Positions 1-31,221 of a DNA stretch of 40,071 bases are shown here, piece by piece (the stretch's first letter is position 1; every line of letters begins with the position of its first letter). The stretch comes from Nemertoderma westbladi (lineage: Eukaryota > Animalia > Xenacoelomorpha). A program made the position numbers and the translations under genes. The stretch lies in assembly GCA_032718475.1 (NCBI GenBank), contig JAUCBJ010008738.1, forward strand, positions 1-40,071, read 5' to 3'. Under the pieces are notes generated by a model. The model made no database searches. It worked only from the letters and a program-made list of their open reading frames with translations, and had not been told where the DNA came from.

Positions 1-206
1 TCTCACTAAATATAATATAAGTAATTACGTACGTAATAAACACGAATATATATTGCACTAATCTACTAAATAATCGCTAAAATAACATTCTACTGAATAA
101 AATTAAAGAAAACGATTATAATAAAATTACATAGCAATACATACGTAAATATAAAAATAATAAAATAATATAAAATAATAGAGTCACACACCCACTCCAT
201 ATGTTG

Positions 207-6898: not shown

Positions 6899-7026
6899 CG
6901 GAAGTACCGGTTAGGACAGCTAGGCCTACGGACCTACAGAAGTACCGGTTCTGGCAGTTGGACCTACGGACCTACGGCAGTACCGGTTCTGGCAGTTGGG
7001 CCTACTGACCTACAGATGTACCGGTA
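6899..7026. repeat. ~38-bp tandem repeat (~3 copies) in the leader of copy A
   Basis: Repeated GTACCGGTTCTGGCAGTTGG(A/G)CCTAC units; counterpart at 14544-14667. Confidence 0.8.
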
Positions 7027-7082
7027 CAGGTTTACCGGTTGACCGGTACTTTCAACTTTATTGCTTACTGCAATAAAGAAGC

Positions 7083-7094
7083 TATATCCTTTAA
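7083..7094 (-). promoter_or_regulatory. Non-tRNA primer-binding position of copy A (TTAAAGGATATA in element sense)
   Basis: Directly follows the LTR end (...GCGAACA), has no TGG, and is the exact reverse complement of LTR 7869-7880. Confidence 0.7.
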
Positions 7095-8340
7095 TGTTCG
7101 CGCTTTCAGACCTTTGGCAGTTTAACCCACCAAATTAAGATGTCTTCTAGATATTAAATCGCTTTTTAGCCTATGACAAGTATTTGATTCACTACACTAG
7201 TCGAAACCAATCTGTGCGCGATCATTCACCCGCTGGATATTCCCGGGAGATTGGGTTCGACGGTTTAATTTTATTGCTATGTAAGCCTAATGTATTATTC
7301 GACTGACAGTATTATATAATCTCTGACAATATTATTCACCTTCGGGAATATTAACAGTTCCTTTTGGACGTGGCGCTTTATTTATATAAACAGAGTTATG
7401 ACTTAAACTACTCACAACGATATGGCTTAATTATAATTCACATATATGGCGCATTCTTTAGGAAATGCTTCTTTAACAGACTCACTCGTACACAATGCTG
7501 CACAATACTGCACACTAATCTGCCAATCTTCACTGATTTTAGTCACATATAAAAGGAACACAGACTGACTCATGTAGGGTCTATCAAATAACATTAGATT
7601 CACTTCAAACCACTTTAACATAAGTCACAATCGTTATTGGTAACCTTTCTCTCTTACCTTCGGTATATCAAGAATATTGGGTGTCGGGGTTATTTCTCGT
7701 TATTCCAATATAATAATTCATCAACAAATATAATGAATAACCGATAACAAATAGCAATATACAGTATTGATTGAGCAGGTAAATTTTAGCAGTTTCAGCA
7801 GTTATTAAAAGCCGTGTGTCAGCAGTATTCACAGATCAGTGATTCCATGAGTTTGGTCGGTACGTCAGTTAAAGGATATATGTCCTTATAATTAAACCTA
7901 CTAGTGTTGAGCTAAAAAGCAGAAAAGCACAAAACACTATACAAATACACAAAACGCAAAACGCCGTTCTTTCGTGGCTTTGAAAAACTCGTGACTACTG
8001 CTCTATACGAGGATACCAACTACCCTTATTCCACGAAGCTCCCGTTCAACACAGAGAAAGAGCAGTGAGATAGGAAAATTTCAGTTCAGTAGCTCTGTGA
8101 TAGGTCAAAATCAAGGCTAACTCAAATTCTATTGGGAGATACAAAAACAAGGCTATGACGCAACCTTCTTAGGCTGGTTGGCCGATTAAACAGAGCCCAG
8201 ATACCTGCGTACAGCAAATCAGCCAATAAGCTGGTAGCTTGCGCTATTCGAGCTATAGATCCCCTTTTAGAGAATTCAGCGACTGGGGGGGAACTGGTTA
8301 GCAAGGCAAACGAATCAGTTATCCCACAAAAGCTTTTACA
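7095..8340 (-). repeat. 5' LTR of copy A (1246 bp, TG...CA)
   Basis: Termini match the LTRs of B. ~7095-7760 is highly similar to B and 7860-7930 recognisably similar; ~7990-8326 is unrelated. Confidence 0.9.
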
Positions 8341-9418: not shown

Positions 9419-10150
9419 GATTGATTTATTTATACATTAGGTCTATGTAAAAACAATAACAAATACACCAAACAATGTACTGGTATAAAGGTATTGTCCA
9501 ACATAACATAGTATTACCCCTAAAGCTTTGCAGCTTATTTCCAAGGGGGGTCCTTTATGTTACTTGGTTACAAATACAATATTACACTACGCTAACCTAA
9601 AACCAATATAAAACGTAATTACACTATGTACATGTACAACTTTACCGAGAGCGTGACAATGTCCGACTCAACGATAAAGATGTAATGTACAGAACAATTT
9701 ATTATAAAACGTAATTACAGTATAAATAGTGAATAATTAATAAACTAATAACTTTCTGTAGGACTATTGTACCTATTTTTACATTGCACACGGAGGTGAG
9801 ATTTAACTGCAGATTTAAAAGAATGTTGATTATCTAGGTTTTTTATTTCATTAGGCAGAGCGTTCCAATTTTTAATACCGTTAAAAAAGAAAGTATCAGA
9901 TTCGAAGGATTTACAATTCGGGAGGTAGAAGTTTGAAGCACTAGCTCTGGTACTGTAAGAGTGTGTATCGCGTACTCTGTTGAATTTTTGTTTTAGGTAA
10001 TTGGGACATTTACCATTATACACTTTATGCACATGGTTAAGGCGTAGCTGCCTAACTCTACTATTCTTACTAAAGACCCTCAATACTTTATTTTTTTTTT
10101 CTATCATCTTAACTCTACTATCTAAGTTAAGTAGTCCAGATTCATAAAAG
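9419..10150 (-). mobile_element. 3' end of a CR1/L2-type LINE (ORF2 C-terminus plus 3' UTR)
   Basis: CPNYL..RVRDTHSYSTR..TFFFNGIKNWNALPNEIK...FKSAVKSHL is a typical CR1/L2 ORF2 C-terminus; the UTR ends in AATAAATCAATC. Confidence 0.8.
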
Positions 10151-10639
10151 TACAACCTTTTTAGCGGGATTTTCAATTCAATCTACAGCATTTGTTGATG
10201 GCATTATTGATTGAAAATATTATTATCAATGGCTGAACGCGCTCTGTTAATATAGACGTACTTTAATTAGGCCGACAATACAACCGACATATTGTAGCAA
10301 ATTATAATATCTTTAACATATTAATTTTCTTTTAACTTATTCAGTAAATAGCTGTATTATCTACGGTCAGCGCTGTTAGATAAGCTGATTATAGTGTCAG
10401 GTGTTGTTGCTGTGTTGCTAACATTCCCATCTCACTATTGTATCGAACAGCTGTAGTCGAAATCTCAGGTTTTGGGGGGAGGTGAGATAGGTCCTGCTAT
10501 TTAGAGTATTGTAGAATATTGTGACTCCGCCACAATATTCGATTTAAATAAAGTACGTATCCGTCACGCAGTCGCTTACACTCGTTCTTAATACAATTAA
10601 TTCGAATAAGTAATGCGTAACATCCCTAATGAAACCAGT

Positions 10640-10880: not shown

Positions 10881-11097
10881 CTTTGGATAATTTCCTGATT
10901 TAGTTTTAAAGCAGATGAAATCTGTCCGTATGTTAGGCCTAAGTTAAAGTACGTCGATATTAACAGAGCGCGTTCAGCGATTGATAATAATATTTTCAAC
11001 TAATAATGCCATCAACAAATGCTGTAGATTGAATTGAAAATCCCGCTACAAAGGATGTACTTTTATTACCAGTATTATTTAGCCAATCAAAGTAAAG

Positions 11098-11726
11098 TTA
11101 GTAAGTCGTTCGCACGAGTTACTAAGTCGTTCGCACGCGTTAGTTAAGTCGTTCGCACGACTTAGTATGTCGTTCGCACGACTTAGTAAGTCGTTCGCAC
11201 GAGTTACTAAGTCGTTCGCACGCGTTAGTTAAGTCGTTTGCACGAATTAGTAAGTCGTTCGCACGAATTAGTAAGTCGTTCGCACGGTTACTAAGTCGTT
11301 CGCACGCGTTAGTTAAGTCATTCGCACGACTTACAGTAGTATGTCGTTCGCACGACTTAGTAAGTCGTTCGCACGCGTTAGTTAAGTCGTTCGCACGACT
11401 TAGTATGTCGTTCGACGACTTAGTAAGTCGTTCGCACGAGTTACTAAGTCGTTTGCACGTGTTAGTTAAGTCATTCGCACGACTTACAGTAGTATGTCGT
11501 TCGCACGACTTAGTAGGTCGTTCGCACGACTTAGTAAGTCGTTCGCACGAGTTACTAAGTCGTTCGCACGACTTAGTATGTCGTTCTCACGCGTTAGTTA
11601 AGTCGTTCGCACGACTTAGTATGTCGTTCGCACGGCTTAAGTATGTCGTTCGCACGAGTTAGTTAAGTCGTTCGCACAACTTAGTATGTCGTTCGCACGA
11701 CATACTAGGTCGTTCGCACGAGTTAG
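11098..11726. repeat. 21-bp tandem array (TTAGTAAGTCGTTCGCACGAC)n, subterminal repeat of the IS3EU-like element
   Basis: Roughly 28 degenerate copies, ending just before the CATGTCCCTTTAGGGGCTCCGTA terminus. Confidence 0.92.
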
Positions 11727-12486
11727 CAAAAAAATATTTTTTTTTTCATGTCCCTTTAGGGGCTCCGTAAGTTCTAGTGTCTTTGTAAAAAATACTTTGT
11801 AATATTTCGTATGAATTATATAGCTTTACCAAGGTTGTATTATATCATTGGTTGAACTGGTCATAACTACAATTGAACCATTAGTTTATTCTAAAATTAT
11901 ATATGCAATATAGTTAATTATTCTATAAAATTATTAATATTATTGTGCCAAAATTGTACTCATATTAATGATGTTTTTGTTTTAATAAATTATAATATTA
12001 ATAACTTAGAAATTAGTGCCTACGCAAACCCCTCCCTTATAAATAACAGCCAAGAGAGAGGATCCTGTGGGTTATTTCGTGTTTCACACTTTTAATTTGC
12101 CTTGCCCCATACAGTTATTCTGCTGTCTACAGCATTACTACCTGAAGTAGGTATTTCAACTATTTATTCATATTGATTCCACTTTCTTGTACCGGTACGC
12201 CAAAGTCACCATCCGTGGATTATGTAACGGCTGGCACATTTTATGGCAGGAAAGTACGTGGTGTCCTATCAGTCTCGTTTCTTTTTTTTATAAACACCAA
12301 TCATTTATTCATACAGTATACTGTTCCTTTTATTAACATTGCGCTACTTTGCATCCACTATGATGTAATACCCGTTACTAAAAGCCGGTACGTGGCAACT
12401 TTCTGAGCAACTTGATGAAAAATTCTGGTTGTCGAACAAAAAAGTTGAGACGTGTACACTTGCTTTAATGCACATGTATTACTTTG

Positions 12487-12799: not shown

Positions 12800-13274
12800 A
12801 TTTTAGAGCTACTGAATATAAACTACAATTATTAAAACTATGTACTGGCCACTCTATTCTCTGTACCCCATTTTCGAAGACCAAACTCCAAATAAACATA
12901 AATTTACTAGATACTTACGATAGTACTGTAAAGAATGGATCAACTTTGCTGAAAATTCTTGAATTGGTAGATACATCAAATTACCATCCGTGAACATCCA
13001 GTCTTTTGCATTATTTACCAAAAATCATCAGGTTCTAAATACAGATTCGATTCCAACGCCCCTGAGAATTATTGTATTTCACTGTTCCACTCGAACCAAC
13101 AGTCATAACCAAAGTCTAAATGATAGTTTGTATTCAGGTTCTAATTTAAATAATTTGTTGTGCAATTTAATATTACGTTTTAGACTTCAACCTTATTGTA
13201 CGCTATTGCGGAAATTGAAAAAGCATTTTTAAACAAGTAGGACTTAATGTATCAGACCGTTATTGTACACGTTT
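12800..13274 (+). pseudogene. Decayed BEL/Pao reverse transcriptase relic, 5' part (interrupted by element B)
   Basis: HQVL..TPLRIIVFHCS..SLNDSLYSGSNL..LILRFR..(A)EIEKAF..DRYCTRF with frameshifts; continues at 24654. Confidence 0.8.
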
Positions 13275-14473
13275 TGTAAAAGCTTTTGCTGAATTGTCCG
13301 GTTATTTTTCCTTATTTTTCCCGTAAAATACTCTGTAGTTGGTTTACCAGGCATAAAAAGGCCGTGTCCTTGCTGTACTGGTGTTTTAGCGGACATAAAA
13401 GCTATTTCTTCTGTATTTGTACTTTAGAGGACATAATCCGTAATTCCGTGACGTAAAAGCTCGATACTCTTGAAAACAGTGTCGCTACCATGACGACGGC
13501 TAGCAGCTGATATTGCCACGTCGACGTTTCTTTGTTTCTTTGTTCTCTCGTTGTTCAGGTTGACCAATCAGAGCGTTTGTTGTCTCTGTGTTGGAGGTGT
13601 ATACAGAAACTCAGTAGTTCAGTGTTATGTTTTGCCCAGAGCCTAAGAACCGGCTTTTGGCACCTCCGTGTTTTCAGTTTTTAGTCCTACACTAGTAGGC
13701 TTAATTATAAAGACATATATCCGTTATCTGATGTCTGATCTCAACATACCTCAACTCATAACATACCATACCTAATCAAACAACCTGTGCATACTTTTAT
13801 ATTGTTATGCTGCTATTTACTGTCGGTTCTTCATAATATGGTTGATGAATTATTATATTTGGAATAACGACAAATAACCCCGAAAACCCAATATTCTTGA
13901 TATACCGAAGGTAAGAGAGAAGGGTTACAGATAAATGATTGCGACTTATGTTGAGTGGTTTGAAGTGAATCTAATGTTATTTGATAGACCCTACATGATT
14001 CGGTCCGTGTTCCTTTTATATGTGACTAAAATCAGTGAAGATCGGCAGATCAGTGTGCAGTATTGTGCAGCATTGTGTATGAGTGAGACTGATAACGAAG
14101 CATTTCCTAAAGAATGCGCCATATATGTGAATTATAACTAAGCCATATCGTTGTGAGTAGTTTAAGTCATAACTCTTTTTATATAGATAGAGCGCCACGT
14201 CCTAAAGGAACTGTTAATATTTCCCGAAGGTGAATAATATTGTCAGAGATTATATAATACTGTCAGTCGAATAATACATTAGGCTTACATAGCAATAAAA
14301 TTAAGCCGTCGAACCCAATCTCCCGGGTATATCCAGCGGGTGAATGATCGCGCACAGATTGGTTTCGACTAGTGTAGTGAATTAAATACTTGTCATAGAC
14401 TAAAGGTGATTTATTATCTAGAAGACATCCTAATTTGGCGGGTTAAACTGCCAAAGGTCTGAAAGCGCAAACA
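13275..14473 (+). repeat. 5' LTR of element B
   Basis: Direct repeat of 23450-24648; only 2 differences noticed by eye (13833/24008 and 14469/24644); AATAAA at 14294. Confidence 0.97.
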
Positions 14474-14485
14474 ATAACGGATATA
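14474..14485 (+). promoter_or_regulatory. Non-tRNA primer-binding position of element B (ATAACGGATATA)
   Basis: Immediately 3' of the LTR, has no TGG, and is the exact reverse complement of TATATCCGTTAT at 13716-13727 (and 23891-23902). Confidence 0.7.
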
Positions 14486-14543
14486 GCTTCTTTATTGCAG
14501 TAAGCAATAAAGTTGAAAGTACCGGTCAACCGGTAAACCTGAA

Positions 14544-14667
14544 CGGTACATCTGTAGGTCAGTAGGCCCAACTGCCAGAACCGGTACTGCTGTAGGCCCG
14601 TAGGTCCAACTGCCAGAACCGGTACTTCTGTAGGTCCGTAGGCCCAACTGTCCTAACCGGTACTTCC
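14544..14667. repeat. 38-bp tandem repeat (~3 copies) in the leader of B
   Basis: CCGGTACT(G/T)CTGTAGG(C/T)CCGTAGG(T/C)CCAACTG units. Confidence 0.85.
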
Positions 14668-14842
14668 GTATAAGTACATTAGTATTATTCGACTTGATTG
14701 TTGTATACCGGTAGGCTGTTTAAGAGATTAGGGACTGTACACCCCTTGTTTCTTTTGGAGCTTACTTATTTCTGTCAGTTTTATTTATTTGTAGGCCAGT
14801 ATTGAACAGAAGGCGTGTAAACCTGATCAGATTGTACAGACG

Positions 14843-15415
14843 ATTTGTAGGCTGAGCTGTTGTCTGATTGCTGTTAAGTCCGAACGAATTGCAGTGTGTG
14901 TAGATCACCTGTCCGATTAAGTACGGTTAGGAAGTAGGGGCAGCGAATGCTGTAAGGTAAACCCCCAATTAAAGAATAAGTCGTACTACTGGGTTAGAAC
15001 GCATACTCCCTAATCATTTCGGAGTCTGCATGTCCTGTAGTTTATTTAGGCTTGAGAGTAGTCTGACATCGTTTAGTCTGTACTTTGTTTGTGTAAGTCC
15101 GTACAGGTAGCGTATAATATTTATTTAGATAATTTGTAGGCTGGATAGTTGTCTGGCTGCTATTAGGTCTGAACGGATTGTAGTGTGTGTAGAGCCTCTG
15201 TCCGATTAAGTACGGTTAGGAAGTAGGGGCAGCCAGTGCGGTAAAGTAAACCCCCAATTAAAGAATAAGTCGTACTACTGGGTTAGAACGCATACTGCCT
15301 AATCATTTCGGAGTCTGCATATACCGTAGTTTGTTTAGGCTTGATAGTAGTCTGTCGGTATTTGGTCTGCATTTTGTTTGAGTAGTTTGTACGCGTAGCG
15401 TAATATTTATTATTC
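14843..15415. repeat. ~290-bp diverged tandem duplication in the leader of B (single copy in A)
   Basis: ATTTGTAGGCTG...GTCCGATTAAGTACGGTTAGGAAGTAGGGGCAGC...TAATATTT occurs at 14843 and again at 15132. Confidence 0.85.
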
Positions 15416-16727
15416 AGAGTTTATGCGATTATTCGCAACATTCATATTCCCCAAGTTTGTTCCTACAGTAATTGTGTTTGTTATACATACCGTTATAGTT
15501 AAATTAACCCCGGTACTACACGGGCTGCTTGGCGTAGGTAAAGACTGGTGATTTTGTGCATCGGTCACTCCAGCAGATGCCGTGGTTCTTTTAGCTGTTC
15601 AAGTATATTTAACTACTGATTATCTGTTGTACAAGTACTCGTACCTAATTTAGGGTTTAGTGTACAGTGCTTTCCGAAAGTAATTATTGTAGGCATTATA
15701 TTTGTGTTGTAAAGTGGTTGATAGGCACGTTCGATTAGCTCTATTAACTTCTAGGTAGGAACACTCCGTGATACATAACGTAGAACCTATAGCGATACGG
15801 CCATAGGTCGTCAGGCGGTGGTATTTTCCTATCTAGACAGCGCAGTGTATTTACTACTACGTATTATTTCAAATACCGCAGTACCCTGTCCGTTGTAATA
15901 ACCAGATTTCTAACCCTTTGTTAGGCTGGTTTGTAGACTTCTTGTAAAATTACCCTAAAAATTCGTATTTTGTGTTTTTTGTAAATTTTTGTGTTTATTT
16001 AGAGATCGTGATCTCAACCCGAATTGTACGTAATTTGTAGTATTAAGTAACTTAGGTAAATTAGAATTATTTGTTTTAGTGTCCTATAAGTAACACTTCA
16101 CTGAAAGCGTACCGCTTTGTGTAGTGATTACTCCCCAGAAATAATAACATTTATTTCAAATATTGACAAAGCCCATTAAAACGGGTATATATATATTATA
16201 AATCAAATCTAACGATTTATAAATAGTAGGCCTACCATATAACCATTAGGTCTCAATATCAGTTGGACTACTGTTCAAATAACGGTAATAAAGTAAGTAA
16301 AGTAACAAAGTAACCCTAAAGTTCAGAAATTCAATTATTTAAAATAATTGATATACCGGTATTTACGATAGGCCTATTATCTTTATTTCTGTAAATTTAG
16401 ACTGAAATTATACCGGTACTTGTAATTAATTCTAGTCCAGAATTATATATACTACAAATTGTAAGCTGTATACCGGTATTCCCGATAGGCCTATTATATA
16501 TTTATATATATTTGTGCTAAAATTATACCGGTATTCTGAGATAAACCTAGTCTGTAATAATACTTATATATACTATAAGCATACCGGTATTCTAATATAT
16601 TATATATATATCACGCTACACTGAGTAGCAGTATCGGTAATTAATTACTAGGCTAGCAGTTAATACTGAATTACTAGACTTGCTTAGACTGTAATATAGC
16701 AGTAGGCATTCAACTGTACAAACAAAA

Positions 16728-19700
16728 ATGTCTGACACAAAACGGGCACTGTCAGATAGTCTTTTGGAAGGTGTTAGAATCAGCCTTAGACTTGGACAGG
16801 GTCTTGAAAGGAAGATGGCAGAGGCAATGGCAACAGCAGAAGCGAAAAGAAAGGCGGCAGAGGCAATGGCAACAGCAGAAGCGAAAAGAAAGGCGGCAGA
16901 GGCAATGGCAACAGTAGAAGCGGAAAGAAAGATAGAGACACCTGTACTCCCAGAACCTGCCTATAAATTCCCTTTGTACAGTACTAAACTACCTGTGCCC
17001 AGTAGGACTGTTCCCGAGTCCGAACCCATCCTGGACGCCGAGCGAGATATTAAGAATTTATCACCCGTCGTCTCTCGCTCGCCCGCTACAACGTTGGCGA
17101 CTCCCGCTTCGGCGGTTGAGTGGGTAGCTGAGGGACGACGGGAGATGGGTCTCCTGCTCGAGCAGCTGAGGGAACACTGTTTGTGCTCCTCTCAGCAGGT
17201 CCGGGAAATGGAAGAGACTGTTCAGCAGCTCAAGGGAACAGTAAGGGAAAGTAGGTTAGAGTTGCAAAAGGTGCAGCAAAGTATCGCGTTAGAATGCGAT
17301 AAATTAGTGAACATACAAAGGGGTATAACACCACCCCCTGTAACAATGTGTCAACCCGTTAGGTCTGAAGTATTTCATGCGCAAGGTGTGGAGCCTACAC
17401 GCATCTATACTGCTAGTGAAGTAGAAACTCCTATAGTAAACCCTATTCAGGGTAATTATAAACCTGTTGATAATAATATTCCATATAGACCTGATCATAA
17501 TCCGAGAAATTTATATACCGATAATTCTATATTCAATAATACGATGGCTCAAGAAAGTTTTACGCGTCAAATGGCTAGAACCGAAGCCCGGCAAGCGGTA
17601 AAGGTTGGAGAGATCGTCAAGTTCAATGGAGATGAGATGAAATGGTTACCTTTTAATGAATATTACAAAGATAACATACAGAACTCTGTACTATCTAACG
17701 GAGAGAAACTTAGATTCCTCATCGAATGTTTGGAAGGACCTCCCAAGTCAATGGCGTTAAAATTTATTGGACATCCAGATGGATTAAGACAAGTTTGGGA
17801 TACACTAAACATCAGGTATGGTAATAAGACTAACATAGCTAGGTATCTATATGCGAAATTAATGGTGCCCCGAAAGTTTCTTAGCAGCGGGATTATAGAG
17901 TTTTCCGATGAGATTCAGGAGATCTGTAGACAACTAGATTGGTTAGGTAAGTCTCATGAATACCAGAATTCTATGGTTGTAGGAGCCTTAGCATCTACTT
18001 TGCCCAAGGGTGGAGTAGGTACACGCTGGGACAAGAAGGTGTTATATATGATGGAACAACAACAACGAGACCCTACCATGGCTGATCTCATGTCATTCCT
18101 GGATAGCGAGGTGAAATTACAGCTCATAAAGCAGTCCAGAGAGAAGACAGCGGAAAGTAAGGTAAGTGAGAAACCCGTTTCTAGGAGAAGGGTAACACCA
18201 GTATGTTATACCGACGACGGTGAAAGCCAAACTTCTCAAGGAGAGGACAGCGGGAAAGACACTGACAGATCTTATGTCAATAAAATGCCTAAAGATCAGG
18301 TAAGTAAATCCAAGTCTCGACCCAATGACAGAAGGGAACCGGTACAAAAAACCCCTCCTACATCTCCTAAAAGAATTCAGGTGAGAAAGCCCGAGGAAAG
18401 AACAAGTGTGCACCACACAGCACATGTTAAAGTAAGTAACATCAAGCCCAAATGTGTGCTGTGCGACGGGCCCCACCGTTTAAATGCGTGTGATAAATTA
18501 CTGAGGAAATCACTAAAGGATAGACGTGAAGTCATGTGGGATAAGCGGTTGTGTTATAATTGCCTCAGACGAGGACACCAACGGCGAACCTGTAACTCCG
18601 ACGCAAGGTGTGCAAAGTGCGGCGCAAAACATCATATCTTGTTGCACACGGAATTCGAACGAAACAGCCCGAGTCAGGTAAGTGAGTCCGAACTACATGT
18701 CCAATTCAGTGATGTGAACGACACTGATCAATCTGAGATGGAAGGATTCTATACGGACGAGTTCTCCGACCAAAACGAATCCTGTTACCTAATAAACACC
18801 ACCGCAGTGTATCGAGCACTCGTGTATGAAAAAGACACAGACAGCGACCTCACCCTAACTACTTCAGATCAACAACCATCTTGGAAAGCGCCAACTTCCA
18901 ATATAGGAATCCGAGAATTTCCTGTAGTCCAGTTACGGGTCCACGGACCTCAGAAGAGCTATATAGTGAATGCCCTCCTGGACTCCGGTAGCACAGGAAC
19001 ATTCATCGATAAAGAGCTAGCCGAAGATATATTTGCTGGACAGCCCAAGTTCCAAACTAAGCTCAACATGTCTGGCATTATGCAAGTTTGGAAATCTACA
19101 ATAACAGCTGATTATTATGTAGGCGCGTTGTCCACCCCACAAGACGAACTAGGAGAACACAGCATAAGGTCAGTGAAAATGGTGGCTATAAAGAACTTCG
19201 CTACTACTCAAGCAGACCTTTATAATTGGGACGAGGATGAGAGCATTCAACATCTTAACATACCTCGATTCCAGACTGATTATCCTGGAGTGCAAATACT
19301 CATCGGCCAAAACGCGCATGAGGCGCTGGAGACATTAGAGAAACGACCTGCTCAACCGCAGCCACTACAGACCTATGCGGTAAGAACTAGAGTAGGTTGG
19401 TACCTTACTGGACCTTCCCGCAGAACGCTCAGGGAAAGACTGCTTCAAGATCGCGTCTGCCAGGTGAGTGAATGGGAAGATGATACTGGTGAGGGAGACG
19501 ACCCAACTGAGGGAACACCACACTCCTCAGATAATGACAATCTTAGCTCCAATGTAGATCAATGGAGATATTGCCCCAAGAAGTTTAATCCAACGGACAT
19601 CGCTTCCAGAGGAGCAACTCCTCAAGAACTGACAGATACTATAGACCGGTTAGGTGAACCCGACTTCCTGAGTAAGGAGAATGAATGGCCTCCCCATCTT

Positions 19701-20192
19701 ACTCCGACTGAGATTAGACCAGCCAAGGGAGCGGAGAAAGTTAAACCTAAAACCCGGACGGGTGGAGCGGAGTTATTTGAACCCGGGATAGATCTGTCGG
19801 TATTGCATATTGCCAGGGATGACGCCGTGGATTTGGACCTCCCCACCGCGAGTGGATCCTTCATGAAGATCAGAGAGAGCGATTGGAGCTCTGGAACATC
19901 AGACGTCTCGCAGGGACTCTCACCTCTCCTGCAGAGAGCGACGGACCACTATAGCTCCTGGAATCGGCTTTGTGATGCCGCCATATACTTTGAGCGATGT
20001 TTCTATCGTCACTATTCCAGGACGAAGAGGAAACCTGAAATTGTATTCAGGATGCAGCGACTCAATCATCCAGTCGGTCGTTTGTGTTTACCGGAAGGGA
20101 ATGGAGGACTCTCCGGAAACTGTGGAAGGCAAGATTCTCATCCCACGACCACCTCCCTAATCCTTCAAACATCTAGGGACTCCATAACGTAA
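16728..20192 (+). CDS. Gag-protease polyprotein, 1154 aa; no RT or integrase
   Basis: Same motifs as 207-5132 (Gag core, three Cys/His knuckles, LLDSGS protease), with a shorter N-terminus containing three AEAMAT(A/V)EA repeats. Confidence 0.93.
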   Translation: MSDTKRALSDSLLEGVRISLRLGQGLERKMAEAMATAEAKRKAAEAMATAEAKRKAAEAMATVEAERKIETPVLPEPAYKFPLYSTKLPVPSRTVPESEPILDAERDIKNLSPVVSRSPATTLATPASAVEWVAEGRREMGLLLEQLREHCLCSSQQVREMEETVQQLKGTVRESRLELQKVQQSIALECDKLVNIQRGITPPPVTMCQPVRSEVFHAQGVEPTRIYTASEVETPIVNPIQGNYKPVDNNIPYRPDHNPRNLYTDNSIFNNTMAQESFTRQMARTEARQAVKVGEIVKFNGDEMKWLPFNEYYKDNIQNSVLSNGEKLRFLIECLEGPPKSMALKFIGHPDGLRQVWDTLNIRYGNKTNIARYLYAKLMVPRKFLSSGIIEFSDEIQEICRQLDWLGKSHEYQNSMVVGALASTLPKGGVGTRWDKKVLYMMEQQQRDPTMADLMSFLDSEVKLQLIKQSREKTAESKVSEKPVSRRRVTPVCYTDDGESQTSQGEDSGKDTDRSYVNKMPKDQVSKSKSRPNDRREPVQKTPPTSPKRIQVRKPEERTSVHHTAHVKVSNIKPKCVLCDGPHRLNACDKLLRKSLKDRREVMWDKRLCYNCLRRGHQRRTCNSDARCAKCGAKHHILLHTEFERNSPSQVSESELHVQFSDVNDTDQSEMEGFYTDEFSDQNESCYLINTTAVYRALVYEKDTDSDLTLTTSDQQPSWKAPTSNIGIREFPVVQLRVHGPQKSYIVNALLDSGSTGTFIDKELAEDIFAGQPKFQTKLNMSGIMQVWKSTITADYYVGALSTPQDELGEHSIRSVKMVAIKNFATTQADLYNWDEDESIQHLNIPRFQTDYPGVQILIGQNAHEALETLEKRPAQPQPLQTYAVRTRVGWYLTGPSRRTLRERLLQDRVCQVSEWEDDTGEGDDPTEGTPHSSDNDNLSSNVDQWRYCPKKFNPTDIASRGATPQELTDTIDRLGEPDFLSKENEWPPHLTPTEIRPAKGAEKVKPKTRTGGAELFEPGIDLSVLHIARDDAVDLDLPTASGSFMKIRESDWSSGTSDVSQGLSPLLQRATDHYSSWNRLCDAAIYFERCFYRHYSRTKRKPEIVFRMQRLNHPVGRLCLPEGNGGLSGNCGRQDSHPTTTSLILQTSRDSIT

Positions 20193-20499
20193 CAACATAT
20201 GGAGTGGGTGTATGACTCTATTATTTTATATTATTTTATTATTTTTATATTTCTGTATGTATTACTATGTAATTTTATTATAATCGTTTTCTTTAATTCT
20301 ATTCAGTAGAATGTTATTTTAGCGATTATTTAGTAGATTAGTGCAATATATATTCGCGTTTATTACTTAATTACGTATGTATTATATTTAGTGCGACGGC
20401 AAGGGATAATTCTTTTCTCTTTCCTTACGGTGTCCGTATCATATTATAAATACGTGACTACAGTAAGATGAAATGTCCGTACTTATTAAAGTACAATAA

Positions 20500-21290
20500 A
20501 GCCACTACTATATTCAAGTATTATTGGTAGGCAGAGTATTAGGAATGCAAAGTTCAGATCCTCGTGTCTCGGCTAAACCAAGCTCTGGGTAGACCTTGGA
20601 AATGACTTGCCTCTTCACACTGACATTGCTTCGTGCGATATTGCTCTCATACCGTATATTAAATAATACATATAGTAGCGTGATGTCCCTTTAACAGTAG
20701 CGTATAACGCAAAATAAATCTGTTAAACCCTTTGACCATCTGTAATTCTAGTCGATTAAGATATCGTGGCACCCACCGATATACTTGAAAGACAAATTAT
20801 AGAATCAGTGGTTAACGTCCCCAGACAAGTTCTGGAATAAATCGGTGCCCATCTCAAATATTAATTATTTAATATTTGCAAATCTAATAAGTCAAAATCT
20901 GTAAAATTCAGATCCTTCAACAATTCTAGTCAATTAAGATATCGTAGCATTTACCGATATTCTTAAAAAGACAATTGTCATAGAATTAAGGATCTTGTGT
21001 CCCCAGACATGTTCTAGAATCAAAATATGTCAATTTAATTATCAAATAATAAAATTTCAGGGAATAAATTTAAATTCATACCTTTTAATGAATTTAATAA
21101 ATTGCCATTTTTACGCAATTTATAACATTCCCAAAATTCCATTAATTAATAGATCAAGGGAGCGGAGATTTATCTTATTATGCGTATGAGTGTGCGAAAG
21201 TCTCCCAAACATAGTCAATAGCCGATAAAATTCATAAAGTCATGTATAAAACAGGACATTGACCATTAAAGAATTACTATTAAATAACAT
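20500..21290 (+). pseudogene. Heavily decayed BEL integrase remnant (tentative)
   Basis: TCLFTLTLLRAILL at 20605-20646 resembles the CLFTCxxTRAVHLE motif; PDKFWNK at 20821 resembles ADxFWxRW; no open frame. Confidence 0.4.
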
Positions 21291-21871
21291 CCCAGATCTG
21301 TATGCATTGGAATTACCCTAATTCTACCGCTAGCTTTGCATAATGTCACCATAGCAACAACCACGCTAGAATTAGAATTGAGTTAAAAGAACAATAGAAA
21401 GCTTGTCCCATTGAATAGCATAGGGAATAAATAGTGCACTGCTAGTATCCAAGGATACATGATAATAACGTGACATTCTGGAAGGCACTGACTAACGGAC
21501 AAGTGACCCGAGTGTGTGTAATTTGTGACAAGTTGTGTGTGTGGTATTTGTGAGTTTATAGGCGAATGTTACTACTAAGGTGTGTTTACAGTAGCGAGTC
21601 GCAATTGTGAAAGTAACCCTAACTCTCCAGTAAGAACCTGAGGTGTATCTAAGCCTTTGGGACGGACAGTCGAGTGACTTGTGCCGGTTGTCTTTGTCGT
21701 TGTGCGGCTACGTCGTTGGCGAAAGTACAGCGGCGACGACACATCGGCGCTGAGGATCTCGTACTGTCCGGGGGTTGATTGGGGTAGGCAGCGATGCCCG
21801 CTCGCCTAAATATAAACTCATTATAATATGGATAAACTCATATATAGCAGATATGACGGAGTTGATAGAAG

Positions 21872-22810
21872 ATGGTCTTGGTATCGGGGAACGATATACT
21901 CTACTTTCAAACGTTTGTTGATAGCTTGATACGCGGTGATACTAGTCCAACTACTACGAAGGATGATGGTCGTTATATCGAACCGCCAATGTCCCAAGAG
22001 CAGCTCACGCGTGAGTTGGACTATAAGAAATTCACCGCTCGCTATACGCATCGTAATAGTACGTATGTGGACTTCTTAACTACTGGTCATCCTATCGATT
22101 TACACGATACGGACAATGTCGACACCAAAAGGGAAATGGTACGATTGAAATATCCTACCCAGCGGAGGCGGAACGATAAACCGAGAATGGAACACGAGAA
22201 TTCTATTCGAAACAGACTCGAAAGAGAAAACGTTGAGGAGCCGGATAAACGCAGCGACTTCAACGATTATCTGGAATTCCTGATAGAAACATATCTCAAT
22301 ATTGCCAGTCAACAAAATCTAGAAACTCGATATCCTCAAGGTATACATCATGACCGCATGGTAGAACTCAAACGGCTCGATTCCCCTATGATGTATCTTA
22401 CCGCCGATCGACCGCTACCTGTTGTACCGAATAGCTTCGAACGGATGGAGGAATATTGTAAGCTGGAGAAAGATCACTCGCGTTTCCCCTACAAGACGTA
22501 CGTTTTTGGGTATTATTGCGATGAATGCCCAAGACCCAACCAACGAACGGAAAGACATAAACATCCGCGGAGACGTTGCTTTAAACACGGTTTTACTCGC
22601 TATACTTACAGGAGTTTCGAGCGAAACTTGTTCAATGTATCACCTACGCTCGTTCGACTCAGACGATCCTTAAATAAACCAATGATCAGAGTTTCGGAAT
22701 ACTCGATCAGAGCTCCTCATTCCCTAGTGAGACCTCAGACTCTTGATCCTATTAGTATGACGGATCCTCCCGAGCTGTATTCACTGTTCAAAGATCTAGT
22801 GCTACCCTAA
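21872..22810 (+). CDS. Orphan ORF2 (312 aa) in the env position of element B; hydrophilic, with a Cys/His cluster
   Basis: 939-nt uninterrupted ATG-TAA frame in AT-rich DNA; YCDECPRPNQRTERHKHPRRRCFKH motif; no signal peptide or TM segment visible. Confidence 0.75.
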   Translation: MVLVSGNDILYFQTFVDSLIRGDTSPTTTKDDGRYIEPPMSQEQLTRELDYKKFTARYTHRNSTYVDFLTTGHPIDLHDTDNVDTKREMVRLKYPTQRRRNDKPRMEHENSIRNRLERENVEEPDKRSDFNDYLEFLIETYLNIASQQNLETRYPQGIHHDRMVELKRLDSPMMYLTADRPLPVVPNSFERMEEYCKLEKDHSRFPYKTYVFGYYCDECPRPNQRTERHKHPRRRCFKHGFTRYTYRSFERNLFNVSPTLVRLRRSLNKPMIRVSEYSIRAPHSLVRPQTLDPISMTDPPELYSLFKDLVLP

Positions 22811-23441
22811 CAATTAATCGGTAACACTCCTACAGTGATTTCTAGCTAGCCGCCCATCTTACCTAGCCGGATTGTGACGCGGACATTTAATATCGCCGTT
22901 TAACCCTTACCATCTTCCCGGCTTGACACGATATAACCTGTCACCAGAGTGGCGGAGAACGTTGTACCAAATGAGTTAAACGCTATTCTACAAAGATCAG
23001 AAAGGAAACCTACGTTTGTTCAGATAAATGTAAGTTATAACAGCAAGTCCAAGCGATAAACGAATTGTCTTTATCTCAGTTCGATTGTGAAATCCAGAAT
23101 CTCTAAGAAGATATCGCACTTAGACAACCCCATTCTCTGCGAGAGTTTTTGGATGAACGTATCCAGCTACGAGCGGAGGAAAATCAGCTCGAGGAGAAGC
23201 ATATCGAAACGGCGGATACCCCGACCATAATCCTACACCTTCTGATGCAATCATATTGCACCTTTCACCCAGGATTTATAGCCCTCCTAGTAAAGTGGCT
23301 CCCCCCAAAGAGAAAAGGACTCTTGCTAGCCTCAAGAAACTGCGTAAACGCCGTCTGCGCAAAGAAACTAACTGTTTAGAGTATCTTTATGTTTTAGAAA
23401 CTGTGATTTTTATATTTTATAGACTGAAAATCCCATTTTCT

Positions 23442-23449
23442 GGGAGCGG
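23442..23449 (+). promoter_or_regulatory. Polypurine tract of element B
   Basis: GGGAGCGG directly abuts the TG of the 3' LTR. Confidence 0.7.
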
Positions 23450-24648
23450 TGTAAAAGCTTTTGCTGAATTGTCCGGTTATTTTTCCTTATTTTTCCCGTA
23501 AAATACTCTGTAGTTGGTTTACCAGGCATAAAAAGGCCGTGTCCTTGCTGTACTGGTGTTTTAGCGGACATAAAAGCTATTTCTTCTGTATTTGTACTTT
23601 AGAGGACATAATCCGTAATTCCGTGACGTAAAAGCTCGATACTCTTGAAAACAGTGTCGCTACCATGACGACGGCTAGCAGCTGATATTGCCACGTCGAC
23701 GTTTCTTTGTTTCTTTGTTCTCTCGTTGTTCAGGTTGACCAATCAGAGCGTTTGTTGTCTCTGTGTTGGAGGTGTATACAGAAACTCAGTAGTTCAGTGT
23801 TATGTTTTGCCCAGAGCCTAAGAACCGGCTTTTGGCACCTCCGTGTTTTCAGTTTTTAGTCCTACACTAGTAGGCTTAATTATAAAGACATATATCCGTT
23901 ATCTGATGTCTGATCTCAACATACCTCAACTCATAACATACCATACCTAATCAAACAACCTGTGCATACTTTTATATTGTTATGCTGCTATTTACTGTCG
24001 GTTCTTCCTAATATGGTTGATGAATTATTATATTTGGAATAACGACAAATAACCCCGAAAACCCAATATTCTTGATATACCGAAGGTAAGAGAGAAGGGT
24101 TACAGATAAATGATTGCGACTTATGTTGAGTGGTTTGAAGTGAATCTAATGTTATTTGATAGACCCTACATGATTCGGTCCGTGTTCCTTTTATATGTGA
24201 CTAAAATCAGTGAAGATCGGCAGATCAGTGTGCAGTATTGTGCAGCATTGTGTATGAGTGAGACTGATAACGAAGCATTTCCTAAAGAATGCGCCATATA
24301 TGTGAATTATAACTAAGCCATATCGTTGTGAGTAGTTTAAGTCATAACTCTTTTTATATAGATAGAGCGCCACGTCCTAAAGGAACTGTTAATATTTCCC
24401 GAAGGTGAATAATATTGTCAGAGATTATATAATACTGTCAGTCGAATAATACATTAGGCTTACATAGCAATAAAATTAAGCCGTCGAACCCAATCTCCCG
24501 GGTATATCCAGCGGGTGAATGATCGCGCACAGATTGGTTTCGACTAGTGTAGTGAATTAAATACTTGTCATAGACTAAAGGTGATTTATTATCTAGAAGA
24601 CATCCTAATTTGGCGGGTTAAACTGCCAAAGGTCTGAAAGCGCGAACA
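23450..24648 (+). repeat. 3' LTR of element B
   Basis: Direct repeat of 13275-14473, followed by the TSD CGTTT. Confidence 0.97.
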
Positions 24649-24653
24649 CGTTT

Positions 24654-25250: not shown

Positions 25251-25585
25251 CCGCTTAACTAACAACATAAATCAATATTGGATATAAGTTATATTATGGT
25301 GTGTGCAATCAGACACTTAATTTGCAATAACGTTTGAGTGTGTGCATGGATTTTTCTCAAATGTCCTGAAAACCTTTTCTACTTTCGATCCTCTCTCAAC
25401 GCATGTAATAAAATTTATGAAATTCCACCAAAATTTTTAATTTTACTTTTTAAGGCGGAAAAAATTTAAATCGATGCAATCCTATGGGTTATTTTTTCCC
25501 TAGGGAAAAAAATCCATTTTCTCCCGATTTTGGTGTATATTCAAGTGAAAAAGTAGCAATTAAAAGTATTTTTTATTATTTTCAG

Positions 25586-26284
25586 TTAAGTAAAATACAG
25601 AAAGACAGGTATATAATGAGCATCTATAAGTTCGCGATGCTATCGATTAAGTTAGCACATGCAGGAATTGTAATTTCGAAAGAAGAAAAGATAGGCGTAA
25701 AGATACAACAGAGGGTAGATGAAACTGTTGGATTCGATCGTAACTGGAACGAATATGTTGCTGGATTTGGGGATGTATCTACAAATTTCTGGATTGGTCT
25801 CGAAACGCTGTCAAAGCTATGTAAAGGTGGGGTTAAGTTGAGAATTGATTTGTGGTTCACTGGATATGGATACGATGGTACCACGGGAGATTTTTTGGAA
25901 AGTAATGACACCACGGGATACTACGTGGAATACCAGAACGAACACCGATACGCCGAATACAGCAACTTCTATATCGGATCAGCTGCAACTGATTATCACC
26001 TACATGTATCCGGTTACCAAGGCACTATTGGTGATGCATTGTCTGCGAGGCATAACTGTCAGCCATTCTCCACCAAAGACCGCCGCAACAATCCCCAATC
26101 CTACTGCTTGGTAACAGATCTTACAGGAGGGTGGTGGTTTAACGCAGACTGCTCGGGCAGCAACTTGAATGGAAGGTATGTTTCGCCATCGCTTTACATT
26201 TGGAATCAACCGGTCAATTCGTCCTCGAATGCATCAGTAGTCGAAGAATACGCTAATCGAATTGAAATGAAGATTTGGATTTAG
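25586..26284 (+). CDS. Coding exon 2: fibrinogen C-terminal (FReD) domain, ficolin/techylectin/angiopoietin-like
   Basis: IQQRVD..FDRNWNEYVAGFGD..FWIGLE..LRIDL..YAEYSNFYIG..YHLHVSGYQGTIGDAL..HN.QPFSTKDR..GGWWFNADCSGSNLNG..EMKI. Acceptor TTTTTTATTATTTTCAG ends at 25585 in phase 0; AATAAA at 26316. Confidence 0.9.
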   Translation, partial: LSKIQKDRYIMSIYKFAMLSIKLAHAGIVISKEEKIGVKIQQRVDETVGFDRNWNEYVAGFGDVSTNFWIGLETLSKLCKGGVKLRIDLWFTGYGYDGTTGDFLESNDTTGYYVEYQNEHRYAEYSNFYIGSAATDYHLHVSGYQGTIGDALSARHNCQPFSTKDRRNNPQSYCLVTDLTGGWWFNADCSGSNLNGRYVSPSLYIWNQPVNSSSNASVVEEYANRIEMKIWI

Positions 26285-27763: not shown

Positions 27764-28441
27764 CTCCCCGTGAGTGTTTCCCCCCGCTGCTAGCCTCTAC
27801 TAGCTGTTCTCCCTCCGAGGTGGTTTGACCTCTCACCTCTCTCTGTGGCTTTAGGGCTTGTGTCGCCCCCCCCCCAAAGTTGGTTATGAGGCGAGATTAA
27901 TATTGGTAATCTCGTATCCCCAACTATATTAGTAAAATGCCACTGGTCCCCTTTTCTGGTGGGTAATGAAGTGGAATTGAATCCGCTTACACTCCCCCCC
28001 ATTCTATCTTTCTGGTGAGAAGATAGCATCAACCTTAAGTGCACTTCAATTCCGCTGGAACCCAATCTAATATTGGGTGTTGGCTGGAGTTCTTTTCTCG
28101 GGGTTGGCTTTCCTGACCGCCCCCCCTGGGTATGTTATTACTACCCCTCCTTGATGCAATCGCGAGCTATGTAGCACCAAGGTATCTGGTGTCTCTGTTT
28201 GAGACAATTGTGCTCTCTCTCTCTCCACACAATTTTTTACAACCTCACTCTAACCTTACTCTCGTACCTCTCTGTCCCTTACTTTCTCTCTCGCAGACCT
28301 CGTTGTCCCTTACTCTCTCTCTCACAGACCTCGTTGTCCCTTACTCTCTCTCTTACTGCTCGCTCCGCACACTTGAATTGCACTCCTCTCACTTCCTCAC
28401 GCACCAAAACCTCCTCTCCATACTTCCCTCTTACACAATCC

Positions 28442-29945
28442 CCTGTAAGATATATCTCTTCTGATATATCTTTTGTCCGAATCTGATATATCTCCTGTTT
28501 CCCTGGCCTCGCTCCCCTTTTCAGCGAGTTCGCCAGTTCCGCTCTGTACTCCTCTCGGACTTGCCCCAGTCCATCGGCTTGTGGCAGACAAGCCCCATGA
28601 TCTGGCCCATCGCCACTGCTCCACAATGTCCTGTACCCGCTCCGTGCTCCTCCCGGAACTTGCCCCAGTCCATCGGCTTGTGGCAGACAAGCCCCATGAG
28701 CTGGCCCATCCCCACTGCTCCACAATGTCCTGTGTTCTCTACCACCCCCAAAGTGCCAATTTTTCTTAGTTTTATTTTAATTTTATCTATGCTGCCCCCT
28801 GTCTGTGCTATCATCCTATCTACCTTCCTACTCCTTTCTTACTATGTGCCCTACTACTACTATGCTATGCCTACATACCCTTTACTTTCTTACTACGTGG
28901 CGCTCTCGGTGCCCACAACCCCTCTGCTACTACTTCTATGGTATACCTACATACCATACCCTCTACTCTCTTACTATGTGGCGCTTTCGGTGCCCACAAC
29001 CCCTCTGCTACTTTTTCTATGGTATACCTACATACCATATCCTTTACTCTCTTACTACGTGGCACTTTCGGTGCCCACAACCCCTCTGCTACTACTTCTA
29101 TGGTATACCTACATACCATACCCTTTACTCTCCTACTATGTGGCGCTTTCGGTGCCCACAACCCCTCTGCGGTACTATGTACCCTACTACTTAGTACTAT
29201 GTACTATCTACTACTACTACTTTCTATTATCTTACTTCTTATTTTATTATTTGCTTATTATTATTTTTTTTTATATTTTTATGTGTGGGAAGGGTGTCTC
29301 GCCCTCATTCCCACCCCCCTCAGTCCAACATATTGGACGACTCAACAACCTAAGGGCGATTCTTCCAGCAGGCTACTATCCCACTGCCCCCCTATAGGTC
29401 CTCTTAATCTTTGCTCTAAGATCCTAATTCCAACTCTTTTGGAATTTACCTTCCCTTCTCCTTCACCCTTAAGTCGGGTCTTTCCGTCATGTTACTGATC
29501 TCCTGGTGGTCATCCCCTGGCGGCAAAGAGCCACCCTTCATCTTGTCGTAGTTTGGCGGTAGAATGCCGCCCCTCATGTCATCCTTAATGGTACATGCTG
29601 CATCTGCGGGCCTCCCCCTTAATATGTGCGCCGGCATTAAAGCCCCCGATGACCCCCGGTCATCCTTCGGTACATGTAATGGTTTACCATTTAATGCCCC
29701 TTACTTTAATGCCACCCGCTTATGAGTGTATAACATGCCCTCTCCCACTTTCCTGCCTCCTTTGTCACGTTTCATCATGGGCTTCTCTGCCCCAGGTCTA
29801 ATCTTCCCACATCCTCTCCCTTTCCACCTTGTCTTCTTACTCGACCTCCTCCCCACCGGTATGCCTCTCAACCGGACCGGTGTTTGTTCCGGACATCTCT
29901 CCGGACACCTCGCCATCCACTCTTCTCCATCCCCATACCGATACT
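28442..29945. repeat. Copy 1 of a ~1.5-kb duplicated module (copy 2 = 30801-33919 minus the LINE); contains 2x99-bp and 4x81-bp tandem repeats
   Basis: CCTGTA(A/G)GATATATCTCTTCTGATATATC at 28442 and 30801; 99-bp units at 28561 and 28660; 81-bp units at 28897, 28978, 29059 and 29140; shared ATACCGATACT end at 29945 and 33919. Confidence 0.88.
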
Positions 29946-30789
29946 CCCCATTCTCCTCCGCCCTCGGCATCGTCTCCCCAAACACTACCCGTGGTGCCGT
30001 TCCTGGCTGCTCGCCCAGCCTGATCGTGCCTCCCGCAAAATCCATCGCCGGCTCCTCATGCACCCAGGCCCGCTTGCCGGGTTTATCCCAGAAGGCTCTC
30101 GCTCTGCTGGCCGTCACCACTCTCCCGCCCACCCAGTCCGTATCTGAGTGGCCGATCCTCTCGATGGGCGGCATCTCCCCAAACTCGTTGTCATCTTCCT
30201 CCCTCGCTGGGAGTGGATCCAGACCAGGAATCCCGGTAGATCCACTGTGCCCCTTTCCGCCTTGGCTTCCACCCGTAACTTTCCACCCTGCCTGCTCTCT
30301 TGGTCTCTTCCTTGCGAAATCACCCTCAGAGCCCCCTGGTATGGGCATCATTTGCAATCCCGATGTCGACTGTTTCGGTGATCCCTCCGTCCATCCCAGT
30401 TCCTCCCCCAGAAACTCGCCCGAGCTCCCTGATCCCCACCTTAGCTCGTCCAAGTCCTGGGCTTTGAACCCGTACTCATCTCGCCTTATATCTGCCTCTC
30501 TCTCGTCTGCTTCCCTCCTTTCTTGCCTGGCGATTTCTTCCAGCCTCTTCTCCTCGGCTCTATCTGCTTCCAGCTTCTCCCATCTCTTGTATGGTGTATC
30601 CACCTCTCTGTCTACTAGGTGCCGGCTGTCATAGTACACCGACTCGCCGTTCAGCCTCGGTTGGTCTACCAGACCTCCGAAGGCCACCTTAAAGGCTCTT
30701 CTGTAGTTTAGAGGTGCTCCTGATAGCAGAAACGCCGTTGGCTCTCTTCCGATAACCACGGCCATGAATAGGTTTAGTAAACCTATCAT
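29701..30789 (-). CDS. Unknown extra ORF (~362 aa from MIGLL) of the second BEL element, with a charged coiled-coil segment
   Basis: Open frame in unique sequence between the two modules; EKLEADRAEEKRLEEIARQERREADERE; C-terminus paralogous to the gag-PR tail. Confidence 0.55.
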   Translation of the reverse strand: MIGLLNLFMAVVIGREPTAFLLSGAPLNYRRAFKVAFGGLVDQPRLNGESVYYDSRHLVDREVDTPYKRWEKLEADRAEEKRLEEIARQERREADEREADIRRDEYGFKAQDLDELRWGSGSSGEFLGEELGWTEGSPKQSTSGLQMMPIPGGSEGDFARKRPREQAGWKVTGGSQGGKGHSGSTGIPGLDPLPAREEDDNEFGEMPPIERIGHSDTDWVGGRVVTASRARAFWDKPGKRAWVHEEPAMDFAGGTIRLGEQPGTAPRVVFGETMPRAEENGEYRYGDGEEWMARCPERCPEQTPVRLRGIPVGRRSSKKTRWKGRGCGKIRPGAEKPMMKRDKGGRKVGEGMLYTHKRVALK

Positions 30790-31221
30790 TATCCAATCCT
30801 CCTGTAGGATATATCTCTTCTGATATATCTTTATCGCTCCCCTTCGGAACTGATACACCTCCTGTTTCCCTGGCCTCACTCCCCATTTCAGCGAGTTCGC
30901 CAGCTCCGCTCCATACTCCTCTCGGAACTTACCCCAGTCCATCGGCTTGTGGCAGATAAGCCCCATGAGCTGGTCCATCGCCACTGCTTCACAATGTCCC
31001 ATGCCCGCTCCGTGCTCCTCCCGGAACTTGCCCCAATCCATCGGCTTGTGGCAGACAAGGCCTATGAGCTGGCCCATCCCCACTGCTCCACAATGTCCTG
31101 TGTTCTCTACCACCACCAAAGTGCCAATTTTCCTTAGTCTTATTTTATTTTTCTTATGTTCCCCCCTGTCTGTGTATTATCCTTTCTACCTTTCTACTTC
31201 CTCCTTACTATGTACCCTACT

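Follow-up and report, generated by a model that had tools for sequence, protein, structure and literature searches.

An abundant BEL/Pao family of Nemertoderma westbladi that lacks reverse transcriptase, keeps an open Gag-protease gene and may prime itself

This study concerns element B, a long terminal repeat (LTR) element of the BEL/Pao type found at positions 13275-24648 (11.4 kb) in DNA from Nemertoderma westbladi (assembly GCA_032718475.1, contig JAUCBJ010008738.1). The window analysed is the stretch from position 1 to 40,071 of this contig, 40,071 nucleotides (nt) in all. We consider it probable that element B represents an abundant and young BEL/Pao family without reverse transcriptase (RT), which has kept an open Gag-protease gene, spreads with the enzymes of an intact BEL partner and is probably self-primed.

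The boundaries of element B are clear. Its two LTRs (13275-14473 and 23450-24648, 1199 nt each) have TG..CA ends, lie within the 0.2-1.2 kb length range of BEL/Pao and differ at 2 positions (99.83% identity), and sequence comparison identified the target-site duplication CGTTT on both sides (13270-13274 and 24649-24653). Between the LTRs, all on the plus strand, are a 5' leader of 2.25 kb (14474-16727) with a 38-nt repeat in three copies and a 289-nt repeat in two, the open reading frame (ORF) ORF1 of 1154 residues (16728-20192; frame 16695-20192, ATG at 16728), ORF2 of 312 residues (21872-22810) and, preceding the 3' LTR, a short tract rich in purines (23442-23449). If the substitution rate per site and year is taken to lie between 1e-8 and 2e-9, an assumption of ours, the LTR mismatches would place the insertion at roughly 0.08-0.4 million years ago.

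ORF1 encodes, in this order, a shortened Gag N-terminus, the BEL Gag core (DUF1759, 17622-18008, Pfam E 1.5e-13), triple Cys/His nucleocapsid zinc knuckles recognised from the sequence and a weak zf-CCHC_4 match (18450-18644), an aspartic protease region bounded by the motifs LLDSGS and GWYLTGP (18963-19415, motifs and a weak Pfam match), a linker, an RNase H tail with a pre-integrase stretch (19545-20033) and a novel C-tail; it stops before the integrase. At E<=1, Pfam matched ORF1 to none of its families for RT, RNase H or integrase. Of 157 proteins fetched, the 45 full-size BEL ones served to build a BEL profile, which matched ORF1 only at profile positions 19-704 and 1253-1371 (E 4e-91), the latter range covering the RNase H tail with its pre-integrase stretch, and gave no match to RT or integrase inside element B in any of the six frames. 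The distance between the motifs GW.L.G and NP.D..SRG is 65 residues in element B, compared with 503-619 residues in 38 of the 43 other proteins that contain both motifs (three are shorter and two longer). As judged by this shrunken spacing, about 510 residues, comprising RT and most of RNase H, have been lost in frame. The joint can be placed at 19538-19545, between the point where low-depth contigs depart from the element and the point where the BEL profile picks up again. The remaining RNase H tail is a leftover that has been kept open, not an enzyme. The pol of BEL/Pao elements supplies RT, RNase H and an integrase, and no such pol is present here; element B is a derivative of BEL/Pao and not an autonomous member. 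Since its LTRs are nearly identical and flanked by a target duplication while RT and integrase are lacking, element B must have been reverse-transcribed and integrated recently without enzymes of its own. The original prediction, which had described a young insertion, an in-frame jump from GWYLTGP to the BEL RNase H tail and the lack of an intact RT or integrase, is thus borne out on all three counts.

The same architecture is found in a second member of the family, copy A, which occupies positions 1-7756 on the minus strand and is truncated at the start of the window. It consists of a partial 5' LTR (7756-7095, cut at LTR base 537, with the 3' part outside the window), a leader and ORF1 (5132-207; frame 207-5165), which is open for 1641 residues from the first Met. 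Both the gap, with RT and most of RNase H missing, and the open frame were predicted for copy A, and both are confirmed. The linker of copy A is 15 residues shorter (the motif spacing being 50 residues), and about 500 residues of its Gag N-terminus are missing from copy B, in both cases with the frame retained. The two copies lie in opposite orientation, and B carries its own target duplication.

That these copies belong to a large family was evident from contigs of DNA sequencing runs from three studies. The element sequence, or part of it, was detected in seven of the ten runs listed, from four studies; the assembly itself may have been made from the best of these runs. On 10.35 kb of the element, 101,288 contigs were placed from run X1 and 23,268 from run X3. 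Single contigs reached depths of up to 9251 compared with 57-125 on the flank, depth not being equal to copy number; summed contig depth likewise serves only as a rough contrast inside one run. A piece was taken to bridge the joint if at least 31 letters matched on each side of 19538, and three of the 32 pieces listed did so: two from the independent study X4 and one from X5 (record 28), a run that may be RNA but does not serve here as a sign of expression. Of the X4 pieces, record 22 had a depth of 1085, and record 19 crossed the joint without a gap with 40 differences in 233 nt. Three further pieces, with depths of 102, 743 and 4629, fell narrowly short of the 31-letter rule. Because the joint is common to copies about 17% apart, the loss is old whereas insertion is ongoing. 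These data support a large and diverse family that propagates while being non-autonomous. The rival explanation of a one-off deletion spread by segmental duplication could draw on the fact that just two copies are visible in the window; the B-specific CGTTT duplication, the inverted orientation, the mosaic divergence of the copies and the very large family that crosses the joint all contradict it, and we regard it as extremely improbable. The propagating family proposed in the original prediction is thereby supported.

A single clean in-frame joint shared by diverged copies would also be expected if the gap were an intron, i.e. if the helper had made a subgenomic Gag-protease RNA by splicing and the family descended from this RNA after its packaging and reverse transcription. 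RT-less BEL proteins in other animals add to this idea, in particular the barnacle gene model P0013, in which the profile jumps from 740 to 1252 and the right breakpoint is nearly the same as in element B. However, P0013 is the product of a gene model whose prediction may have passed over a broken RT, and the integrase of element B has also been lost and replaced by unrelated sequence and ORF2, for which one splice is insufficient. An origin by splicing therefore appears very unlikely. Some sequences may still retain the missing segment. X4 record 21 (383 nt, depth 30) and nine X1 contigs diverge from the element exactly at 19538, 7 nt before the BEL profile resumes, and are candidates for a rare undeleted partner. 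The share of placed sequence that runs on unlike the window was 0 in X1 and X3, and 0.18 in X4.

Selection on ORF1 was assessed by comparing copies A and B with the Nei-Gojobori method. The ratio of non-synonymous to synonymous substitution rates (dN/dS), which the original prediction had asked for on ORF1, was 0.21 when the 1071 codons that could be aligned were taken together (bootstrap 0.16-0.27). For Gag-protease it was 0.115 (p 7.5e-30) and thus far from 1, a sign of purifying selection between the two copies. The individual values were 0.087 for the Gag core, with a synonymous divergence (dS) of 0.45, 0.157 for the knuckle region and 0.128 for the protease region; at 17701-17790, five of the eight differing codons proved to be synonymous, as had been counted earlier. 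The C-tail gave 0.18 at low divergence (7 synonymous and 4 non-synonymous changes, p 0.007). We also considered family variants near the joint, of which 40 of 104 were listed. Among these, the protease end had 5 synonymous and 1 non-synonymous variants, the linker 3 and 5, respectively, and none created a stop.

With regard to priming, BEL elements are reported to use an 18-nt primer site for transfer RNA (tRNA), either tRNA-Arg or tRNA-Gly (PMC8742986). No TGG follows the 5' LTR of element B, and hence there is no primer site of the tRNA 3'-end type; tRNA genes were not found in the window, in which Rfam gave a single match far below threshold (E 0.076). Instead, the first 12 nt after the LTR (14474-14485) are perfectly complementary to LTR bases 442-453 (13716-13727; 23891-23902 in the 3' LTR). 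A self-complement of this length was seen twice in 8910 mock positions and seven times when the LTR was shuffled 20,000 times, corresponding to a chance of about 1 in 3000. The predicted duplex is extended by five pairs past a small loop, with pairing values of 0.85-1.0. The 40 family variants listed, of 1454, do not include the 12-nt pairing positions. In a published self-priming screen, the requirement is at least 10 nt of complementarity to the LTR within 0-5 nt of it (PMC6317226); element B passes with 12 nt at offset 0. Judged from sequence, reverse transcription may be primed by a piece of the element's own LTR RNA instead of a tRNA. The LTR also contains a candidate intron (13911-14421, LTR bases 637-1147) that starts at a 5' splice site close to the consensus, ends at a pyrimidine-rich AG and encloses the only AATAAA of the LTR (base 1020); if it were spliced out, the 5' LTR would lose its AATAAA and the primer loop would become shorter.

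To place this in the BEL group, 36 BEL loci were fetched, most of them host DNA that had ended up in bacterial bins. Of these, 21 had an LTR pair; 14 were kept and seven dropped for unclear ends. Seven of the 14 have TGG within 7 nt of the LTR, one resembles such a site and six are without a tRNA-type site. A complement spanning a GT..AG joint in the LTR, 11 nt long and formed by the initial 11-12 nt behind the LTR, is present in three of the six non-tRNA loci (L007, 1003-1770; L013, 1291-2046; L024, 1484-1848), compared with 0/137, 2/321 and 0/158 in the nulls and with none of the three tRNA-site controls tested (of eight). Priming thus seems to be independent of tRNA in part of the BEL group. 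In a tree of Gag-protease sequences ORF1 grouped with the non-tRNA relatives, a weak link with a FastTree value of 0.96 and an ultrafast bootstrap of 56; P0158 and P0077 were misaligned in the first tree and left out of the later one.

Several observations weigh against the reading preferred here. The divergence between copies A and B is mosaic: when taken in blocks of 250 nt, some differ by about 2% while others reach 12-24% (mostly 2-10% in LTR and leader), and dS falls from 0.45 in the Gag core to 0.06 past the joint. This patchiness points to recombination, which fits co-packaging; the diverged Gag blocks may stem from an autonomous lineage by this route. Owing to the mosaic, the two-copy dN/dS is no proof that selection took place entirely within the RT-less lineage, and some of it may be a helper's legacy. 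For the RNase H tail, dN/dS is 2.4 (1 synonymous and 8 non-synonymous changes, not significant), and the 26 variants listed past the joint (7 synonymous, 19 non-synonymous) are close to neutral, so that the residues of the RNase H tail look unconstrained though the frame stays open. As to the helper, its sequence was not found, the best 150 library matches being at most 39% identical, and no fetched locus matches element B as DNA. Concerning the primer, 12 of 385 mock sites reach a 12-nt helix when G-U pairs are allowed, copy A differs at two of the 12 primer-site bases and lacks the matching LTR segment, and a contiguous complement of at least 10 nt occurs in none of the six BEL relatives without a tRNA site. 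Further searches came back empty: viral and metagenome contigs gave no match to ORF1, the LTR-end pattern had none either, and the protease-to-tail part of ORF1 had none among shorter proteins.

The mosaic divergence, the lowest dN/dS in the most diverged block and the near-neutral variants past the joint would suit a different explanation, in which only cis signals drive movement, as in a large retrotransposon derivative (LARD), and the apparent selection on Gag-protease comes from its diverged blocks being renewed again and again through recombination with an autonomous helper. Under such a regime it is difficult to account for two frames that are both open (1154 and 1641 codons) despite length changes of 15 and about 500 residues, for the dN/dS of 0.18 in the C-tail past the joint at low divergence, and for the lack of stops among the 40 variants listed near the joint. 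We therefore judge movement by cis signals only to be rather unlikely, and continue with a family that makes its own Gag-protease and borrows RT and integrase.

In such a family, transcription would start from the 5' LTR, and the RNA would be translated into Gag-protease that binds its own RNA in cis, by analogy with the mouse intracisternal A-particle (IAP) element IAP 1Delta1. Gag-protease would then assemble with the helper polyprotein into mixed particles, which the helper's RT and integrase would enter on the helper's Gag. In the Tf1 scheme, an RNA duplex is cleaved to yield the primer. Accordingly modelled, the helper's RT/RNase H would cut the duplex of LTR and primer site to give the self-primer and then extend it, and the helper's integrase would make the 5-bp target duplication. 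Gag and Pol form one polyprotein in the full-size BEL relatives, as has been described for BEL elements in general, where both can share one chain (PMC8742986), and the borrowing of RT and integrase is for this reason likely to occur through co-assembly with the helper polyprotein. The original prediction held that the family builds its own capsid and obtains RT and integrase in trans; the non-autonomy is upheld, whereas a wholly self-built capsid is less likely than co-assembly.

A broader, unlikely possibility is a two-component self-primed BEL system, in which a rare intact element gives RT and integrase, the abundant RT-less family gives excess Gag-protease, and each is primed by its own LTR, with no tRNA involved. 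Those BEL forms without RT that keep different modules, such as Gag-protease here and Gag-protease-integrase in P0158, would then reflect a recurring division of labour in animals. If so, the 'parasite' would also be the main source of capsid, and the RT-less family would make the Gag excess that a single-ORF BEL element cannot make by frameshifting.

Other BEL proteins and features deserve mention. P0158, P0066 and P0152 are BEL polyproteins with Gag and integrase domains and no RT or RNase H family match, and may be either deletion forms or gene-model artefacts; P0158 (1255 residues) has a protease and both integrase ends, and P0158 and P0066 are of the Gag-protease-integrase type. Animal BEL retrotransposons are encoded at 35 loci (L002-L036) of GTDB prokaryote genomes or bins, one of them a Wolbachia record, and host contamination is the likely cause. 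The ORF2 protein has no homolog, with no Pfam, PHROG or PDB match and none in the fetched loci, and its predicted fold is unusable (predicted local distance difference test score, pLDDT, 33). Its 313 open codons exceed those of all 500 shuffles (maximum 168), but six of the seven variants listed change the amino acid and give no sign of selection. An envelope gene was rejected, the highest 19-residue hydropathy being 1.08, and there is no membrane segment. As judged by contig joints, the ORF2 region varies among subfamilies, and ORF2 is for this reason likely an accessory or decaying gene.

Element B itself was inserted into an older BEL element, in an RT region that has decayed: the flank at 13026-13199 matches positions 834-887 of the BEL profile (E 1e-10), and that at 24667-24831 matches positions 917-973 (E 0.056). 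A second, unrelated BEL Gag-protease gene lies at 33762-36259 on the minus strand, with related sequence at 28436-31221. It ends after the post-protease motif, no RT or integrase for it was found in the window and neither were its LTRs; it runs into duplicated, strongly skewed sequence broken by a non-LTR RT (30854-32788), and is possibly another RT-less family. A partially self-complementary 21-nt tandem array (11093-11741) stands beside a 123-nt inverted repeat with arms at 10144-10281 and 10928-11066, and this is probably a small DNA element. A host ORF with a fibrinogen C-terminal domain (25454-26284) lies 0.8 kb from the 3' LTR of element B and, like the presence of BEL/Pao elements, speaks for an animal host.

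Surveys based on RT are blind to families of this kind, so that a large part of the young LTR content of an animal genome can be missed. The strategy of keeping Gag and borrowing Pol would extend from plants and mouse endogenous retroviruses (ERVs) to BEL/Pao, whose replication has been called poorly understood and tRNA-primed (PMC8742986). As the family is abundant and young, its joint is defined and the LTR complement spans 12 nt, both Gag selection in a non-autonomous lineage and self-priming in BEL become testable.

Compared with BEL/Pao (Belpaoviridae, PMC8742986), which is restricted to metazoans (PMC3601003), element B shares the DUF1759 Gag, Cys/His knuckles, protease, RNase H tail, LTRs and short purine tract. 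It differs in lacking RT, the RNase H core, integrase and the 18-nt tRNA-Arg/Gly primer site, in its additional ORF2 and in its length of 11.4 kb versus 4.2-10 kb in the BEL/Pao profile (PMC8742986). We did not find a published BEL example of an RT-less family that keeps Gag in a search made without Repbase, most subscription journals and supplements; the main text of a BEL/Pao survey does not contain the words 'autonomous', 'primer' or 'PBS' (PMC3118150), and the non-autonomous elements described from Culex are without coding sequence (PMC3286476). With Tf1/sushi, Tcn1 and TAR, element B has in common the lack of a tRNA site and a post-LTR complement of at least 10 nt to the LTR; these are autonomous gypsy/copia elements (PMC6317226), whereas the predicted pairing segment of element B lies 746 nt upstream in a BEL/Pao derivative. 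Mouse IAP 1Delta1 (PMC6466679) arose by an in-frame deletion that created a fusion ORF whose product acts in cis; it needs proteins in trans and is the source of most new insertions. Element B shares the in-frame deletion, the fusion ORF and the trans-dependence, but IAP 1Delta1 is a betaretrovirus-like ERV whose 1.9-kb deletion takes part of gag and pol, while element B keeps the Gag core and protease and loses RT and integrase. In plants, 28 non-autonomous sugar-beet families keep Gag with protease (PMC13570524), and pol-less Athila families have intact ORFs under purifying selection (PMC2410132). Plant TR-GAG, GAG/PROT-only and Athila elements resemble element B in the retention of Gag, non-autonomy and recombination among families, and differ in being Ty1/copia or Ty3/gypsy, whereas element B is an animal BEL/Pao derivative with an in-frame RNase H-tail fusion. 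The analogy to TR-GAG drawn in the original prediction thus holds for gene content (Gag, optionally joined by protease, with RT, RNase H and integrase lacking except for the RNase H tail of element B) and way of working, and fails for lineage, as the Gag is of BEL type and not of plant copia/gypsy descent; element B is TR-GAG-like rather than TR-GAG. The kind of element is already known from plant TR-GAG, GAG/PROT and Athila families and from mouse IAP 1Delta1.

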